A DNA stretch of 6,166 nucleotides, taken from a virus (taxonomy: Duplodnaviria; Heunggongvirae; Uroviricota; Caudoviricetes). The position numbers and the translations under genes were made by a program. Shown piece after piece: positions 1 through 6,166 of the stretch. The notes beneath the pieces were generated by a model that saw nothing but the letters and a program-made list of their open reading frames with translations, made no database searches and was not told the origin of the DNA. The number at the start of each line of letters is the position of its first letter. Within the stretch, counting starts at the first letter, position 1. The stretch lies in the IMG/VR virus record IMGVR_UViG_2609459801_000011. The stretch is one strand, 5' to 3'.

Positions 1-72
1 CATTTCCGCGCAGACGATGACGTCACTGCCCGGCTGTATGCGCGAGGTTACCGACTGCGGCCTGAGTTTTTT
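1..72 (-). CDS. insB: IS1 InsB (InsAB' transposase) N-terminal portion, partial; continues past the window start
   Basis: The reverse complement of 1-47 translates in the -1 frame relative to insA to ...[11 protein letters not shown], matching the start of the InsB frame. The A6C frameshift motif lies at 66-72. The 5' limit is approximate. Confidence 0.65.
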
Positions 73-323
73 AAGTGACGTAAAATCGTGTTGAGGCCAA
101 CGCCCATAATGCGGGCAGTTGCCCGGCATCCAACGCCATTCATGGCCATATCAATGATTTTCTGATGCGTACCGGGTTGAGAAGCGGTGTAAGTGAACTG
201 TAGCTGCCATGTTTTACGGCAGTGAGAGCAGAGATAGCGCTGATGTCCGGCAGTACTTTTACCGTTACGCACCACGCCTTCAGTAGCTGAACAGGAGGGA
301 CAGCTGATAGAAACAGAAGCCAC
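48..323 (-). CDS. insA: IS1 InsA, transposition inhibitor / DNA-binding protein (91 aa, GTG start)
   Basis: Full-length ORF in the six-frame track; the translation is near-identical to InsA as I recall it, including the Cys-rich zinc-finger-like N-terminus CPSC...CSHC and the C-terminal LKNSGRSR. Confidence 0.9.
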
Positions 324-1167: not shown

Positions 1168-2979
1168 ATGGGTAAAGGCAGCAGTAAGGGGCATACCCCG
1201 CGCGAAGCGAAGGACAACCTGAAGTCCACGCAGCTGCTGAGTGTGATCGATGCCATCAGCGAAGGGCCGGTTGAAGGTCCGGTGGATGGATTAAAAAGCG
1301 TGCTGCTGAACAGTACACCGGTGCTGGACACTGAGGGGAATACCAACATCTCCGGTGTCACGGTGGTGTTCCGTGCCGGTGAGCAGGAGCAGACACCGCC
1401 GGAGGGGTTTGAATCCTCCGGCTCCGAGACGGTGCTGGGTACGGAAGTGAAATATGACACGCCGATCACCCGCACCATTACGTCTGCAAACATCGACCGT
1501 CTGCGCTTTACCTTCGGTGTACAGGCACTGGTGGAAACCACCTCAAAGGGTGACAGGAATCCGTCGGAAGTCCGTCTGCTGGTTCAGATACAACGTAACG
1601 GTGGCTGGGTGACGGAAAAAGACATCACCATTAAGGGCAAAACCACCTCGCAGTATCTGGCCTCGGTGGTGGTGGGTAACCTGCCGCCGCGCCCGTTCAA
1701 TATCCGGATGCGCAGGATGACGCCGGACAGCACCACAGACCAGCTGCAGAACAAAACGCTCTGGTCGTCATACACCGAAATCATCGATGTGAAACAGTGC
1801 TACCCGAACACGGCACTGGTCGGCGTGCAGGTGGATTCGGAGCAGTTCGGCAGCCAGCAGGTGAGCCGTAATTATCATCTGCGCGGGCGCATTCTGCAGG
1901 TGCCGTCGAACTATAACCCGCAGACGCGGCAATACAGCGGTATCTGGGACGGAACGTTTAAGCCAGCATACAGCAACAACATGGCCTGGTGTCTGTGGGA
2001 TATGCTGACCCATCCGCGCTACGGCATGGGGAAACGTCTTGGTGCGGCGGATGTGGACAAATGGGCGCTGTATGTCATCGGCCAGCATTGCGATCAGTCG
2101 GTGCCGGACGGTTTTGGCGGCACGGAGCCGCGCATCACCTGTAATGCGTACCTGACCACACAGCGCAAGGCGTGGGATGTGCTCAGTGATTTCTGCTCTG
2201 CGATGCGCTGTATGCCGGTATGGAACGGGCAGACGCTGACGTTCGTGCAGGACCGACCGTCGGATAAGGTGTGGACCTATAACCGCAGTAATGTGGTGAT
2301 GCCGGATGATGGTGCGCCGTTCCGCTACAGCTTCAGCGCCCTGAAGGACCGCCATAATGCCGTTGAGGTGAACTGGATTGACCCGAATAACGGCTGGGAG
2401 ACGGCGACAGAGCTTGTGGAGGACACGCAGGCCATTGCCCGTTACGGTCGTAACGTCACGAAGATGGATGCTTTTGGCTGTACCAGCCGGGGGCAGGCAC
2501 ACCGCGCCGGGCTGTGGCTGATTAAAACAGAACTGCTGGAAACGCAGACCGTGGACTTCAGCGTGGGTGCCGAAGGGCTTCGCCATGTACCGGGCGATGT
2601 CATTGAAATCTGCGATGATGACTATGCCGGTACCCGCTGGCATGAAGATTCCGTGCGTAACCGCTGGTTCAGCGTAATGGCGGGGCCGTCTGTGCGCGTG
2701 AATGAATGGTTCAGCGCGTATGCGATGGCGGGTGTGGCTTACAGCCGTGTGTCGACTTTCTCCGGGGATTATCTCCGCGTAATTGACAACAAGGGGAAAA
2801 CGCACGACGTGCTGACCGGAAGTGATGACGGTCGCCACAGCAACACGTCTCTGGCGTGGGGAGCTGGCGTGCAGTTTAACCCGACCGAATCCGTGGCCAT
2901 TGATATTGCTTATGAAGGCTCCGGCAGTGGTGACTGGCGCACTGACGGTTTCATCGTGGGTGTCGGTTATAAATTCTGA
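1168..2979 (+). CDS. Chimeric ORF: tail tip / host specificity protein J N-terminal ~488 aa fused in frame to the C-terminal ~115 aa of a Lom/Ail-family outer-membrane beta-barrel protein; probably a deletion-derived pseudogene
   Basis: AGGA 7-10 nt upstream of the ATG at 1168. The N-terminus MGKGSSKGHTPREAKDNLKSTQLLSVIDAISEGP... matches lambda J through ...EICDDDYAG (codon ending about 2631). From 2632 the translation switches to Lom-like sequence ending ...VAIDIAYEGSGSGDWRTDGFIVGVGYKF*, the characteristic Lom C-terminus. Lambda J is about 1130 aa, so roughly 640 J codons and the lom 5' half are missing. Confidence 0.85.
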   Translation: MGKGSSKGHTPREAKDNLKSTQLLSVIDAISEGPVEGPVDGLKSVLLNSTPVLDTEGNTNISGVTVVFRAGEQEQTPPEGFESSGSETVLGTEVKYDTPITRTITSANIDRLRFTFGVQALVETTSKGDRNPSEVRLLVQIQRNGGWVTEKDITIKGKTTSQYLASVVVGNLPPRPFNIRMRRMTPDSTTDQLQNKTLWSSYTEIIDVKQCYPNTALVGVQVDSEQFGSQQVSRNYHLRGRILQVPSNYNPQTRQYSGIWDGTFKPAYSNNMAWCLWDMLTHPRYGMGKRLGAADVDKWALYVIGQHCDQSVPDGFGGTEPRITCNAYLTTQRKAWDVLSDFCSAMRCMPVWNGQTLTFVQDRPSDKVWTYNRSNVVMPDDGAPFRYSFSALKDRHNAVEVNWIDPNNGWETATELVEDTQAIARYGRNVTKMDAFGCTSRGQAHRAGLWLIKTELLETQTVDFSVGAEGLRHVPGDVIEICDDDYAGTRWHEDSVRNRWFSVMAGPSVRVNEWFSAYAMAGVAYSRVSTFSGDYLRVIDNKGKTHDVLTGSDDGRHSNTSLAWGAGVQFNPTESVAIDIAYEGSGSGDWRTDGFIVGVGYKF

Positions 2980-3005
2980 TTAGCCAGGTAACACAGTGTT
3001 ATGAC

Positions 3006-3032
3006 AGCCCGCCGGTTCAGGCGGGCTTTTTT
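3006..3032 (+). terminator. Rho-independent terminator downstream of the J-lom chimera
   Basis: GC-rich 8-bp stem AGCCCGCC (3006-3013) / GGCGGGCT (3020-3027), 6-nt loop GGTTCA, then a run of six T (3027-3032). Confidence 0.7.
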
Positions 3033-3043
3033 GTGGGGTGAAT

Positions 3044-5923
3044 ATGGCAGTAAAGATTTCAGGTGTACTGAAAGACGGCACAGGAAAACCGGTACAGAAC
3101 TGCACAATCCAGCTGAAAGCAAAACGTAACAGCACCACGGTGGTGGTGAACACGCTGGCCTCAGAAAATCCGGATGAAGCCGGGCGTTACAGCATGGACG
3201 TTGAGTACGGTCAGTACAGCGTTATTCTGTTGGTGGAAGGATTCCCGCCGTCACATGCCGGGACCATCACCGTGTATGAAGATTCTCAACCCGGTACGCT
3301 GAATGATTTTCTCGGTGCCATGACGGAGGATGATGCCCGTCCGGAGGCACTGCGTCGTTTTGAACTGATGGTGGAAGAGGTGGCGCGTAACGCGTCCGTG
3401 GTGGCACAGAACACGGCAGCCGCAAAGAAGTCAGCCAGTGATGCCAGCACATCTGCCAGTGAGGCGGCAACCCGTGCGACTGATGCTGCAGATTCAGCAC
3501 GTGCAGCCAGCACGTCAGCCGGACAGGCCGCGTCGTCGGCTCAGTCAGCGACTTCCAGCGCAGGAACGGCATTAACAAAGGCCACTGAAGCATCAAAAAG
3601 TGCTGCCGCTGCAGAGTCCTCAAAAAGCGCGGCAGCTACCAGTGCCAGTGCCGCGAAAACGTCAGAAACGAATGCTGCAGCGTCACAACAATCAGCAGCC
3701 ACTTCTGCATCCACCGCGACTACGAAAGCGTCAGAAGCTGCCACCTCAGCCCGGGATGCGGCGGCTTCAAAAGAGGCGGCAAAATCATCAGAAACGAACG
3801 CATCCTCGAGCGCCAGTAGCGCAGCTTCCTCGGCAACAGCGGCAGGAAATTCCGCGAAGGCGGCAAAAACGTCCGAGACGAACGCTAAGTCTTCTGAAAC
3901 AGCAGCGGGACAGAGCGCCTCAGCTGCGGCAGGTTCAAAAACAGCGGCTGCGTCGTCTGCCAGTGCTGCGTCAACAAGTGCCGGGCAGGCCTCAGCCAGT
4001 GCCACCGCTGCCGGAAAATCGGCAGAAAGCGCCGCATCATCCGCTTCAACAGCCACAACGAAGGCTGGCGAAGCCACTGAGCAAGCCACTGCAGCAGCGA
4101 GGTCTGCTTCTGCAGCAAAAACCTCTGAAACAAATGCAAAGACTTCAGCAGACAATGCTGCTTCCTCTAAGGCGGCAGCCGCATCGTCCGCTGGTTCAGC
4201 GGCGTCATCGGCATCATCTGCGTCTGCTTCAAAAGATGAGGCGACCAGACAAGCGTCAGCAGCGAAAGGTAGTGCCACGACAGCAACAACGAAAGCATCA
4301 GAGGCGGCAGGCAGTGCGACGGCTGCATCTCAGAGCAAAGTTGCTGCTGAATCCGCGGCAACGCGTGCCGAAACAGCGGCAAAACGGGCAGAGGATATTG
4401 CTGATGCCGTATCTCTGGAAGATGCGAGTACGACGAAAAAAGGTGTGGTTCAGCTCAGTAGCGCCACTAACAGCCCGTCTGAAACGCTGGCTGCGACACC
4501 AAAAGCGGTTAAGGCGGTAATGGATGAAACGAACAAGAAAGCGCCCTTAAATAGTCCTGCACTGACCGGAACGCCAACAACGCCAACTGCGCCAAAAGGT
4601 ACTAATAATACTCAGATCGCAAGTACGGCTTATGTGATGGCCGCGATTGCCGCCCTTGTAGACTCGTCGCCTGACGCACTGAATACGCTGAACGAGTTAG
4701 CGGCGGCGCTGGGCAACGACCCGAATTTTGCGACCACCATGACTAACGCGCTTGCGGGTAAGCAACCGAAAGATGCCACCCTGACGGCGCTGGCCGGGCT
4801 TGCTACTGCGGCAGACAGGTTTCCGTATTTTACGGGGAATGATGTCGCCAGCCTGGCAACCCTGACAAAAGTCGGGCGGGATATTCTTGCGAAATCGACC
4901 GTTGCTGCCGTTATCGAATACCTCGGTTTACAGGAAACGGTAAACAGGGCCAGGAACGCCGTGCAAAAGAATGGCGATACCTTGTCCGGTGGGCTTACTT
5001 TTGAAAACGACTCAATCCTTGCCTGGATTAGAAATACTGACTGGGCAAAGATTGGTTTTAAAAATAATGCCGACAGCGACACTGATTCATACATGTGGTT
5101 TGAAACAGGCGACAACGGCAATGAATATTTCAAATGGAGAAGCCGCCAGAGCACCACAACAAAAGACCTGATGACTCTTAAATGGGATGCTTTGTCTGTC
5201 CTTGTTAAAGCCCTTTTCAGCAGTGAAGTAAAAATATCGACAGTCAATGCACTGAGGATATTTAATTCATCTTTTGGTGCTATTTTTCGTCGTTCTGAAG
5301 AATGCCTGCATATCATCCCTACACGAGAGAATGAGGGAGAAAATGGTGATATAGGGCCACTACGCCCCTTTACGCTTAATCTCAGAACTGGTCGGATAAG
5401 CATGGGGCATGGTCTTGATGTTACAGGGGATATATTTGCAAACCGTTTTGCAATTAACAGTAGTACCGGCATGTGGATTCATATGCGTGACCAGAATGTT
5501 ATTTTGGGACGCAATGCGGTATCCACCGATGGTGCGCAGGCATTACTTCGTCAGGACCACGCTGATCGCAAATTTATGATTGGTGGACTGGGGAATAAGC
5601 AATTTGGCATCTACATGATTAATAACTCAAGGACAGCCAATGGCACCGATGGTCAGGCGTACATGGACAACAATGGCAACTGGCTTTGCGGTGCGCAAGT
5701 TATTCCCGGCAATTATGGTAATTTTGACTCACGTTATGTGAGAGATGTCCGACTTGGTACACGTGTTGTTCAGACTATGCAAAAAGGCGTGATGTATGAG
5801 AAATCAGGTCATGCAATTACGGGGCTTGGCATTATCGGTGCAGTTGATGGCGATGATCCGGCAGTATTCAGACCAATACAAAAATACATCAATGGCACAT
5901 GGTATAACGTCGTACAGGTGTAA
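3044..5923 (+). CDS. stf: Side tail fibre protein Stf, apparently intact (959 aa from ATG 3044): lambda-like N-terminus, Ala/Ser/Thr-rich repeat shaft, different C-terminal receptor-binding-type domain
   Basis: MAVKISGVLKDGTGKPVQNCTIQLKAKRNSTTVVVN... matches the lambda Stf N-terminus as recalled. One uninterrupted ORF ends at TAA 5921-5923. The C-terminal part carries the GDTLSGGLTF motif common in tail fibre distal domains. GGGGTG lies upstream of the ATG. The six-frame track starts the ORF at GTG 3038, but ATG 3044 gives the conserved N-terminus. Confidence 0.9.
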   Translation: MAVKISGVLKDGTGKPVQNCTIQLKAKRNSTTVVVNTLASENPDEAGRYSMDVEYGQYSVILLVEGFPPSHAGTITVYEDSQPGTLNDFLGAMTEDDARPEALRRFELMVEEVARNASVVAQNTAAAKKSASDASTSASEAATRATDAADSARAASTSAGQAASSAQSATSSAGTALTKATEASKSAAAAESSKSAAATSASAAKTSETNAAASQQSAATSASTATTKASEAATSARDAAASKEAAKSSETNASSSASSAASSATAAGNSAKAAKTSETNAKSSETAAGQSASAAAGSKTAAASSASAASTSAGQASASATAAGKSAESAASSASTATTKAGEATEQATAAARSASAAKTSETNAKTSADNAASSKAAAASSAGSAASSASSASASKDEATRQASAAKGSATTATTKASEAAGSATAASQSKVAAESAATRAETAAKRAEDIADAVSLEDASTTKKGVVQLSSATNSPSETLAATPKAVKAVMDETNKKAPLNSPALTGTPTTPTAPKGTNNTQIASTAYVMAAIAALVDSSPDALNTLNELAAALGNDPNFATTMTNALAGKQPKDATLTALAGLATAADRFPYFTGNDVASLATLTKVGRDILAKSTVAAVIEYLGLQETVNRARNAVQKNGDTLSGGLTFENDSILAWIRNTDWAKIGFKNNADSDTDSYMWFETGDNGNEYFKWRSRQSTTTKDLMTLKWDALSVLVKALFSSEVKISTVNALRIFNSSFGAIFRRSEECLHIIPTRENEGENGDIGPLRPFTLNLRTGRISMGHGLDVTGDIFANRFAINSSTGMWIHMRDQNVILGRNAVSTDGAQALLRQDHADRKFMIGGLGNKQFGIYMINNSRTANGTDGQAYMDNNGNWLCGAQVIPGNYGNFDSRYVRDVRLGTRVVQTMQKGVMYEKSGHAITGLGIIGAVDGDDPAVFRPIQKYINGTWYNVVQV
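3400..4400. repeat. Intragenic imperfect repeats encoding the Ala/Ser/Thr-rich shaft of Stf
   Basis: Recurrent peptide motifs with matching nucleotide repeats: AAKTSETNA-like units at about 3649, 3775, 3860 and 4112; TATTKASEAA at about 3721 and 4270; AASTSAGQA at about 3505 and 3960. Codons are dominated by GCN/TCN/ACN. Confidence 0.7.
4911..4936. other. Candidate 26-bp DNA-invertase crossover site (gix/cix/hix-like) inside stf at the constant/variable junction
   Basis: TTATCGAATACCTCGGTTTACAGGAA differs at about 2 of 26 positions from the phage Mu gix site as I recall it (TTATCCAAAACCTCGGTTTACAGGAA) and keeps the conserved ACC-TC-GGTTT centre. It encodes ..VIEYLGLQE.., the point where similarity to lambda Stf ends. 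Confidence 0.55.
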
Positions 5924-5926
5924 TTT

Positions 5927-6166
5927 ATGCAGCATTTAAAAAATATTAAGTCTGGAAATCCAAAAACAAAAGAACAATATCAGCTAACAAAGAATTTTGA
6001 TGTTATCTGGTTATGGTCCGAAGACGGAAAAAACTGGTATGAGGAAGTGAAAAACTTTCAGCCAGACACAATAAAGATTGTTTACGATGCAAATAATATT
6101 ATTGTCGCCATCACCAAAGATGCCTCCACGCTTAACCCTGAAGGTTATAGCGTCGTTGAGGTTCCA
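5927..6166 (+). CDS. tfa: Tail fibre assembly protein Tfa, N-terminal 80 codons (partial, continues beyond the window end)
   Basis: ATG at 5927 lies 3 nt after the stf stop, with AGGTG 6-11 nt upstream. The frame is open to the window end ([41 protein letters not shown]...). Position directly after stf and resemblance to TfaR/TfaQ/TfaE-type proteins, from memory. Confidence 0.8.

Follow-up and report, generated by a model that had tools for sequence, protein, structure and literature searches.

The 26-bp sequence at positions 4911–4936 of the window, which is the complete 6166-bp draft contig JNRZ01000112.1, is an already described DNA-invertase crossover site and the left edge of a cassette that switches tail-fibre tips. 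It is very probably the left (bixL-type) crossover of an invertible tail-fibre cassette of the Mu G/Shigella B type, carried on a lambda-type stf gene. The mechanism is textbook knowledge (Mu G, P1 C, e14 P, and Shigella B), and the site itself is conceptually nothing new. The downstream half of the cassette was deduced from relatives, with three prophages (L001, L002, and L005) that are 99.2–99.8% identical to the window serving as references.

The site, TTATCGAATACCTCGGTTTACAGGAA, lies on the plus strand and occurs only once in the window (both strands, up to three mismatches). It is composed of two imperfectly symmetric 12-bp half-sites flanking a 2-bp core, with the ACC-NN-GGT centre kept. 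The outer half-site (4911–4922) remains with the constant part of stf, the inner half-site (4925–4936) is part of the invertible segment, and the core dinucleotide TC (4923–4924) is the expected point of strand exchange. The reverse complement of the site, TTCCTGTAAACC GA GGTATTCGATAA, coincides with bixL at all 26 positions (PMC3241671, Table 3). Sites for comparison were taken from sequence records or from the table in PMC3241671: gix was extracted from the Mu record at the annotated boundaries of the G segment, and the bix sequences are those of the table, the comparison with the B segment being made at the level of the sites. The first-pass annotation had claimed a near match to the Gin, Cin, Pin, and Hin sites, and alignment against gix, cix, pix, and hix bore this out, with 24 of 26 positions shared with gixL and gixR of Mu, 21 with hixL and with cixR of P1, and 18 with pixL of e14. 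The pix sites gave no match to the window site at up to seven mismatches and were located through an inverted-repeat search instead. The match to bixL is far above chance; by simple arithmetic, about 3e-12 exact matches to a 26-mer are expected in about 12,000 positions.

The 26-mer is translated in frame within stf as V-IEYLGLQE, and a different account would be that the 26 bp are kept for the linker peptide IEYLGLQE and are no recombinase target, swaps and inversion proceeding through RecA-dependent homologous recombination. A kindred peptide, VLEYLGAGE, does occur in lambda Stf, which has no invertible segment, and many database matches gain or lose homology less than about 30 bp from the site, as for any conserved linker. 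However, the differences from gix, at site positions 6 and 9, fall on first codon positions and are non-synonymous (E for Q and Y for N), whereas every synonymous position is kept. The third codon positions in the site are all as in Mu, suggesting a constraint on the DNA beyond that on the peptide alone. Lambda retains the outer half-site only, and the window site equals published sites reportedly used by Din invertases (PMC3241671). Together with the properties of the partner site described below, these observations make the linker account very improbable.

The stf open reading frame is intact and encodes 959 aa, from the ATG at 3044 to the stop codon at 5923. Its constant part (3044–4910, plus strand) is equivalent to Sc of Mu and P1. 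Residues 1–134 match the lambda-type prophage tail fibre N-terminal domain (Pfam phage_tail_N), and the first 623 aa are identical (623/623) to those of the Stf of MB10, which bears the other C-terminus. The variable C-terminal part (4937–5923, plus strand), present in the expressed orientation, is similar to Sv of Mu, with 73% amino acid identity and with nucleotide identities of 95% over 4911–5212 and 82% over 5402–5740; a Pfam Gp34_trimer match is located at residues 667–777 of Stf. The gene is followed by a Mu U-like tail-fibre assembly gene, tfa, which is cut by the end of the contig so that its 5' 240 nt are present (5927–6166, plus strand), and 73 of the 80 aa of the partial product are identical to Mu U.

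A mosaic junction had been placed at the site in the first-pass annotation, and this placement stands with respect to lambda and Mu. The DNA homology to lambda stf spans 4268–4923, and the homology to Mu starts at 4911, the first base of the site; at the protein level, the homology to lambda Stf stops at ..VAAVIEYLGLQE, where lambda has ..VADVLEYLGAGE. The placement fails, however, with respect to the P88-type phages. The stretch 3038–4515 is common to lambdoid phages, and the sequence from 4429 on is common to the P2-like phage P88. The window is 91.9% identical to P88 over 4429–6165, a stretch that starts about 480 bp before the site, and P88-like phages are therefore the likely donor type of the entire distal module. 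The true lambdoid/P2-like joint lies near 4429–4515, about 400–480 bp upstream of the site.

In the three reference prophages, the genes are arranged in the order stf, tfa (+), tfa' (−), the alternative fibre C-terminus (−), bixR, a 55-bp spacer, and the invertase gene. The inverted partner site predicted by the first-pass annotation is thus found in these relatives about 3 kb downstream, identical to bixR at 26 of 26 positions, and the opposite-strand alternative fibre C-terminus and tfa, which had also been predicted, are present as well. The core is TC at both sites when read from the outside. The crossover site is located inside the fibre gene at the border between the constant and variable parts, and the two tips, each with an assembly gene, are in opposite orientations. 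An extended inverted-repeat arm of about 42 bp (4907–4948, plus strand) is common to the partner end of the segment in the relatives, and 25 bp within it (ACCTCGGTTTACAGGAAACGGTAAA, 4920–4944) are the same in both arms and hold the exchange point by which the two orientations can be told apart. The region 18761–21070 of L001 exhibits 93.6% identity to U, U', S'v, gixR, and gin nt 1–191 of Mu, and the alternative, flipped tip, an S'v-type sequence (..GGAAACGGTAAATCAGGCTTC..), is 96% identical in amino acids to Mu S'v. Two scans with loosely specified degenerate consensus sequences found no additional strong site inside the L001 segment, suggesting a two-state switch and not a multi-site shufflon. 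The partner site also bears on the linker account: its outer half falls outside any fibre reading frame, yet it matches bixR at 26 of 26 positions, and the repeat is merely about 42 bp long and adjoins the invertase gene. We infer from the high identity of the prophages that the source strain has the same downstream half.

The same segment was found in both orientations among natural isolates. MB10 (L005) bears the same 3087-bp segment in the flipped state, positions 17743–20829 of L001 corresponding to 20919–17833 of L005 with 99.8% identity, and the flanks are collinear. In this comparison, the exchange falls within 25 identical bp that include the core. Compared with L005, the window shows 99.8% identity over the constant part and 99.76% identity when aligned with the inverted copy. 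Both fusions compared between the strains are intact open reading frames, of 959 and 945 aa, with the same 623-aa constant part. In a survey of 5426 E. coli genomes, the left junction was present in the window orientation in 358 genomes and in the flipped orientation in 127, and the right junction together with a truncated invertase was present in 59 and 97 genomes for the two orientations. At the level of assembled sequence, these comparisons showed that both orientations exist and that their breakpoints fall inside the site, in agreement with the earlier claim of an invertible cassette with alternative fibre C-termini and tfa genes. The orientation polymorphism could partly stem from inversions that preceded the truncation of the invertase and then spread by homologous recombination.

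The claim of a pin-like invertase downstream was correct as to the gene, which starts 55 bp past the partner site in the relatives, but not as to an active enzyme. In all four lambda-type relatives examined (L001, L002, and L005 at att-lambda/bio, and L014 near trp), the gene is a 64-codon remnant, which matches positions 2–73 of the 145 positions of Pfam Resolvase and lacks the HTH. Codon 65 is an in-frame TGA that closes the remnant, and beyond it come a deletion and a fusion to a 3' fragment of tfa. No adjacent functional serine invertase (about 190 aa with the catalytic domain, E helix, and HTH) was found in these relatives, and the earlier hedge that the cassette "once" was driven by such an enzyme fits this finding. 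The first 110 nt of the remnant are 100% identical to Mu gin and take in the region that corresponds by homology to nt 19–90 of P1 cin, where an enhancer is annotated. Nine invertase 5' regions were compared for conservation of the enhancer stretch in the stubs, and few differences were found among them. The truncated junction occurs in 536 genomes, about 10% of the complete E. coli genomes, at no fewer than two attachment sites. The source strain's own invertase is probably a 64-codon remnant as well, as judged from the relatives.

These findings make it very unlikely that the cassette is an autonomous switch, driven in cis by an intact pin/gin-like invertase just past the window in the manner of Mu, P1, and e14. 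Such an arrangement does exist for the same cassette in P2-like prophages and P88, where it is adjoined by intact invertases of 195–199 aa and the site pairs are the same or nearly so (one has a single bixR change). However, every intact copy inspected was in a P2-like prophage or phage P88, and the window is 99.2–99.8% identical to the three att-lambda carriers with the remnant. In the phage collection, we found neither a lambda-type phage or prophage combining the same stf with an intact invertase nor an isolated lambdoid phage carrying the window stf across the site. The remnant in the lambda-type relatives implies that flipping would need an invertase in trans. An intact P88-type invertase is present in about 8% of E. 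coli genomes, some of which also have the truncated cassette; NZ_CP103508.1, for example, has the truncated cassette at one locus and an intact P88-type invertase at another.

The inversion mechanism is carried over from the Gin/Hin family, where it is established. A dimer of a Din-family serine invertase would bind the window site, and a second dimer would bind the inverted partner about 3 kb away. Fis bound at the enhancer within the 5' part of the invertase gene would enable synapsis of the two sites, and cutting at the central 2 bp (TC, 4923–4924), 180-degree rotation, and religation would flip the segment. In the state seen in the window, the constant 623-aa Stf would be produced as an in-frame fusion to the Sv-like tip, followed by the U-like tfa; in the other state, it would be fused in frame to the S'v-like tip, followed by tfa'. 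The swap of tips would alter the receptor specificity of the fibre. Any flipping today would depend on another prophage providing the invertase in trans. A further reading, whose probability falls a little short of even, is that the lambda-type prophages carry an orphan B/G-type cassette, with a stub that keeps the enhancer-homologous stretch and with perfect bixL and bixR. The switch would then stay competent in cis and be flipped in trans by invertases encoded by P2-like, e14, or Mu-like elements in the same cell. If this reading is true, one prophage sets the fibre specificity, or a surface or defence phenotype, of another.

The prophage in the window is lambda-like and decayed and has lost tail genes: the end of an IS1 lies at 378, a deletion of 2.96 kb runs from H to I, and J is fused to lom. 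The whole window is collinear in no complete E. coli genome; the best matches cover 94% of it, broken into three pieces by the IS1 and the two deletions. Given the loss of tail genes, the switch probably has no remaining role in virion host range in this prophage. This decay, together with the in-frame TGA that cuts the invertase at codon 64 and the deletion behind it in the examined lambda-type relatives, raises the possibility that the site is a genuine former site in a locked cassette, the invertase being dead, no compatible enzyme being present in the cell, and the prophage being defective. The contig is also continuous through the site with no sign of a mixed-orientation population, which is weak evidence. 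We consider such a locked state conceivable but rather doubtful. The presence of the same truncated junction in the two orientations (59 and 97 genomes) is difficult to account for unless inversion took place after the truncation, the genomes with an intact P88-type invertase include some with the truncated cassette, and Pin-family enzymes work in trans. The sole difference between a locked cassette and one flipped in trans is whether a trans-acting invertase is present in or absent from the source strain. In the lambda-type carriers, the invertase is dead and yet both orientations occur, so that natural isolates could serve to test whether one prophage controls the fibre switching of another in trans.

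For annotation, the distal stf and tfa in this prophage family are correctly described as one of the two states of a tail-fibre host-range switch. The inverted half is often labelled "hypothetical" or "partial" by annotation pipelines, and the stub of the invertase often appears as a "recombinase family protein".

Among the known systems, the closest at the site level is the invertible B segment of Shigella with pinB and bixL/bixR (GenBank D00660; Tominaga et al. 1991, tabulated in PMC3241671). The window site and the partner in the relatives equal bixL and bixR, respectively, with the same core (GA/TC). The 1991 paper is said to have described a working pinB, instead of which the lambda-type relatives have the 64-codon remnant. 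The Mu G segment (Gin; gixL/gixR; S/U and S'/U') has the same organisation and the same TC core, with a site match of 24 of 26. It differs in that the constant part here is a lambda-type Stf (a siphovirus side tail fibre) and not Mu Sc, the protein identity to Sv is just 73%, and the invertase is truncated in the relatives of the window. P88 (Xuanwuvirus) and two of the three P2-like prophages examined have identical bixL and bixR, and the third (L009) has one bixR change; unlike the lambda-type relatives, they have the intact 195–199-aa invertase and a myovirus fibre N-terminus. PinQ of prophage Qin has been experimentally documented to invert the e14 P segment in trans (PMC12529663), a precedent for an invertase encoded by one cryptic prophage inverting the fibre cassette of a second, although the segment and sites differ from those of the window. 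Fibre chimeras of cryptic prophages with a cellular role are described in the same paper, and PinQ/StfE2 is a precedent for such an effect of one prophage on the phenotype of another (PMC12529663). The P1 C (Cin) and e14 P (Pin) segments have sites of the same 26-bp family inside the fibre gene at the constant/variable border. They differ in site identity (21 of 26 for cixR and 18 of 26 for pixL), in the core (TT/AA versus TC/GA here), and in the content of the segment. The peptide motif at the site is alike, reading ..VIQYLGLRE.. in P1 and ..ALENLGLGE.. in e14.

The 26-bp crossover-type sequence at positions 4911–4936 (plus strand; TTATCGAATACCTCGGTTTACAGGAA) occurs once in the window, where it is in frame with the side-tail-fibre gene stf and codes for V-IEYLGLQE. 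The first-pass annotation had claimed a near match to the Gin/Cin/Pin/Hin crossover sites and proposed an alignment with gix, cix, pix, and hix. The gix reference was taken from the Mu genome record, in which gixL and gixR are identical (TTATCCAAAACCTCGGTTTACAGGAA) and lie across the annotated ends of the G segment. For P1, the crossover points marked in the record gave the cix sites; for e14, the pix sites were recognised from the inverted repeat that delimits the P segment; and the hix and bix sequences are those tabulated for the Din family in PMC3241671 (Table 3). The alignment bore out the claim: read on the minus strand, the window site coincides with bixL of the Shigella B segment (the PinB system) at 26/26 positions, and it matches gix at 24/26, hixL at 21/26, cixR at 21/26, and pixL at 18/26. 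Both changes from gix are at first codon positions and alter the amino acid, and all synonymous positions in the window site are kept, which indicates a constraint on the DNA itself. Judged by its sequence, the site is a known bixL/gix-type crossover site of a known kind of host-range inversion cassette.

Since the window ends with its contig at 6166, the downstream view was taken from complete genomes. Strains MSI001 and PSS-13 carry prophages at the lambda attachment site, adjoining ybhB-bioA, that show 99.2–99.3% identity to window positions 2628–6166. In both, stf and then the tail-fibre assembly gene tfa lie on the plus strand, followed by two elements predicted in the first-pass annotation: a second tfa and then an alternative fibre C-terminus (start-less), both on the minus strand, and the site in inverted form, differing at two positions (TTATCTAAAACCTCGGTTTACAGGAA) and identical to bixR when read on the plus strand (26/26). 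A recombinase gene lies 55 bp beyond the bixR copy. No further strong site was found inside the segment, suggesting a two-state switch. MSI001 positions 18761–21070 showed 93.6% identity to Mu U, U', S'v, gixR, and gin nt 1–191, and window positions 4911–5212 showed 95.4% identity to the start of Mu Sv, with the Mu homology opening at the first base of the site. This homology led us to conclude that the cassette is a homologue of the Mu G and Shigella B segments, attached here to a constant part that is a lambda-type Stf (Pfam phage_tail_N, residues 1–134).

Both orientations, which the first-pass annotation had suggested looking for, were found between strains. In strain MB10, whose prophage is the same and occupies the same locus, the 3087-bp segment is reversed relative to MSI001: MSI001 17743–20829 aligns with MB10 20919–17833 at 99.8% identity, and the flanks are collinear. 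Comparison of the four junction sequences placed the exchange within 25 identical bases (ACCTCGGTTTACAGGAAACGGTAAA), the central TC included. MB10 is the closest relative of the window (99.8% in the constant part and 99.76% to the inverted variable copy of MB10). The 623-residue constant part of Stf is identical in the two and is followed by alternative tips, Sv-like in the window (73% amino acid identity to Mu Sv) and S'v-like in MB10 (96% to Mu S'v); both ORFs are intact (959 and 945 aa, respectively). When 5426 complete E. coli genomes were searched with a 526-bp left-junction probe (at least 80% coverage), the window orientation was observed in 358 genomes and the flipped orientation in 127. 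The initial observation is confirmed, and its reading as an invertible host-range cassette is supported.

The pin-like invertase expected downstream was found only in part: the gene is present in the relatives, but it is a 64-codon stub in all four lambda-type carriers examined, namely MSI001 (stub region 20880–21206), PSS-13, and MB10 at the lambda attachment site and a further carrier (L014) at the trp operon. The opening of approximately 190 nt, up to codon 64, is gin/P88-like, and an in-frame TGA stands at codon 65. Beyond it are about 15 pin-like codons, after which the rest of the gene is deleted and the sequence passes into the terminal approximately 30 codons of a resident TfaR/TfaQ-like tfa. 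Pfam analysis of the stub detected only the N-terminal half of the resolvase catalytic domain, and an HTH was not found. Nucleotides 1–110 are 100% identical to Mu gin and include the stretch that corresponds by homology to the annotated P1 cin enhancer (nt 19–90). A probe for the truncation junction was present in 536 of the 5426 genomes, and the same junction occurs at no fewer than two chromosomal loci, adjoining ybhB-bioA and adjoining the trp operon. By extrapolation from the near-identical relatives, the cassette of the source would be competent in cis and would need an invertase in trans.

Intact invertases (195–199 aa) beside the same cassette were found only in three P2-like prophages (L008, L009, and L013) and phage P88; the bixL/bixR pair is identical in three of these four, and L009 has one change in bixR. 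The 3' part of the intact gene, used as a probe, was present in 454 genomes. Cassettes joined to the truncated invertase were in the window orientation in 59 genomes and flipped in 97, which implies, if the truncation arose once, that inversion took place after the death of the invertase and hence in trans. Such a route is plausible, because PinQ, encoded by prophage Qin, inverts the P segment of e14 (PMC12529663) and because, in the ST131 strain 5506 (NZ_CP103508.1), a truncated cassette coexists with a near-full-length P88-type invertase gene 0.5 Mb away (approximately 2.611 and 3.144 Mb). This strain is a natural candidate for inversion in trans. The site and the cassette type are already known, and the sole mildly new aspect is the widespread "orphan" cassette in lambda-type prophages.

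The first-pass annotation had also noted that Stf leaves its likeness to lambda Stf at the site, which holds: nucleotide homology to lambda stf stops at 4923, and protein homology stops at ..VIEYLGLQE (..VLEYLGAGE in lambda). Its description of the site as the mosaic junction is valid only relative to lambda and Mu, and the joint itself lies at about 4429–4515. In the phage collection, the match of lambdoid phages is confined to window positions 3038 to about 4515, no isolated lambdoid phage has this stf across the site, and P88 matches 4429–6165 at 91.9%. Given these extents, the distal module (collar region, bixL, segment, bixR, and invertase 5' end) was most likely derived from a P2-like phage. 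Many other genome matches gain or lose homology within approximately 30 bp of the site, suggesting that it is also a general module boundary. At the homologous position in lambda stf (J02459, 2302–2327), the outer half-site can still be recognised (TTCTTGAATACC); TT comes next, and the sequence past it is unrelated. This half-site matches the outer half of the window site at 10/12 and, at 11/12, the left half of hixL (TTCTTGAAAACC), and it appears to be the remnant of a Din-type site in a phage without an invertible segment.

The window corresponds, over its full length, to contig JNRZ01000112.1 (6166 bp) of the draft assembly GCA_000704965.1. It starts inside IS1 (terminus at 378; insA 48–323, minus strand). 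Next to the IS1 end are 470 bp from within the tail tape-measure gene (379–848), which run straight into the 3' part of a gpI-like tail-assembly gene (849–1107); approximately 2.96 kb is absent compared to MSI001 (the tape-measure 3' end, gpM, gpL, gpK, and the gpI 5' end). A second deletion, of approximately 2.27 kb compared to intact relatives, runs from the J 3' part through the lom 5' part and made an in-frame gpJ-lom fusion (1168–2979, 603 aa; junction at about 2628–2637, with a 5–10-bp overlap), which combines the N-terminal part of the tail-tip protein J with the C-terminal beta-barrel of Lom. The intact stf (ATG 3044, stop 5923) follows, and then the opening 240 nt of tfa, which the contig end at 6166 interrupts. 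With this gene content, the prophage of the window can no longer build a tail, and because it is tail-less the switch would no longer serve phage host range here.

An identical J-Lom fusion protein is encoded in a second assembly (a GCA_000700485.1 contig). The contig break within tfa is away from the inverted repeat; we speculate that the assembly may have stopped there because the genome has another U/U'-type tfa of nearly the same sequence, e.g. in a P2-like prophage that carries this cassette too and, perhaps, an intact invertase. The stf gene is intact in the window and MB10, whereas its annotation is partial or split in MSI001 (15880–18270) and PSS-13 (12532–15411), both among the closest relatives, suggesting that the fibre gene is decaying in some carriers of this prophage. 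Window positions 3953–4267 are an extra 315 bp (105 aa) compared to lambda stf, within the Ala/Ser/Thr-rich repetitive shaft, and the long antisense or out-of-frame ORFs in the shaft (e.g. 3541–4278, minus strand, and 3600–4520, plus strand) look like low-complexity by-products.
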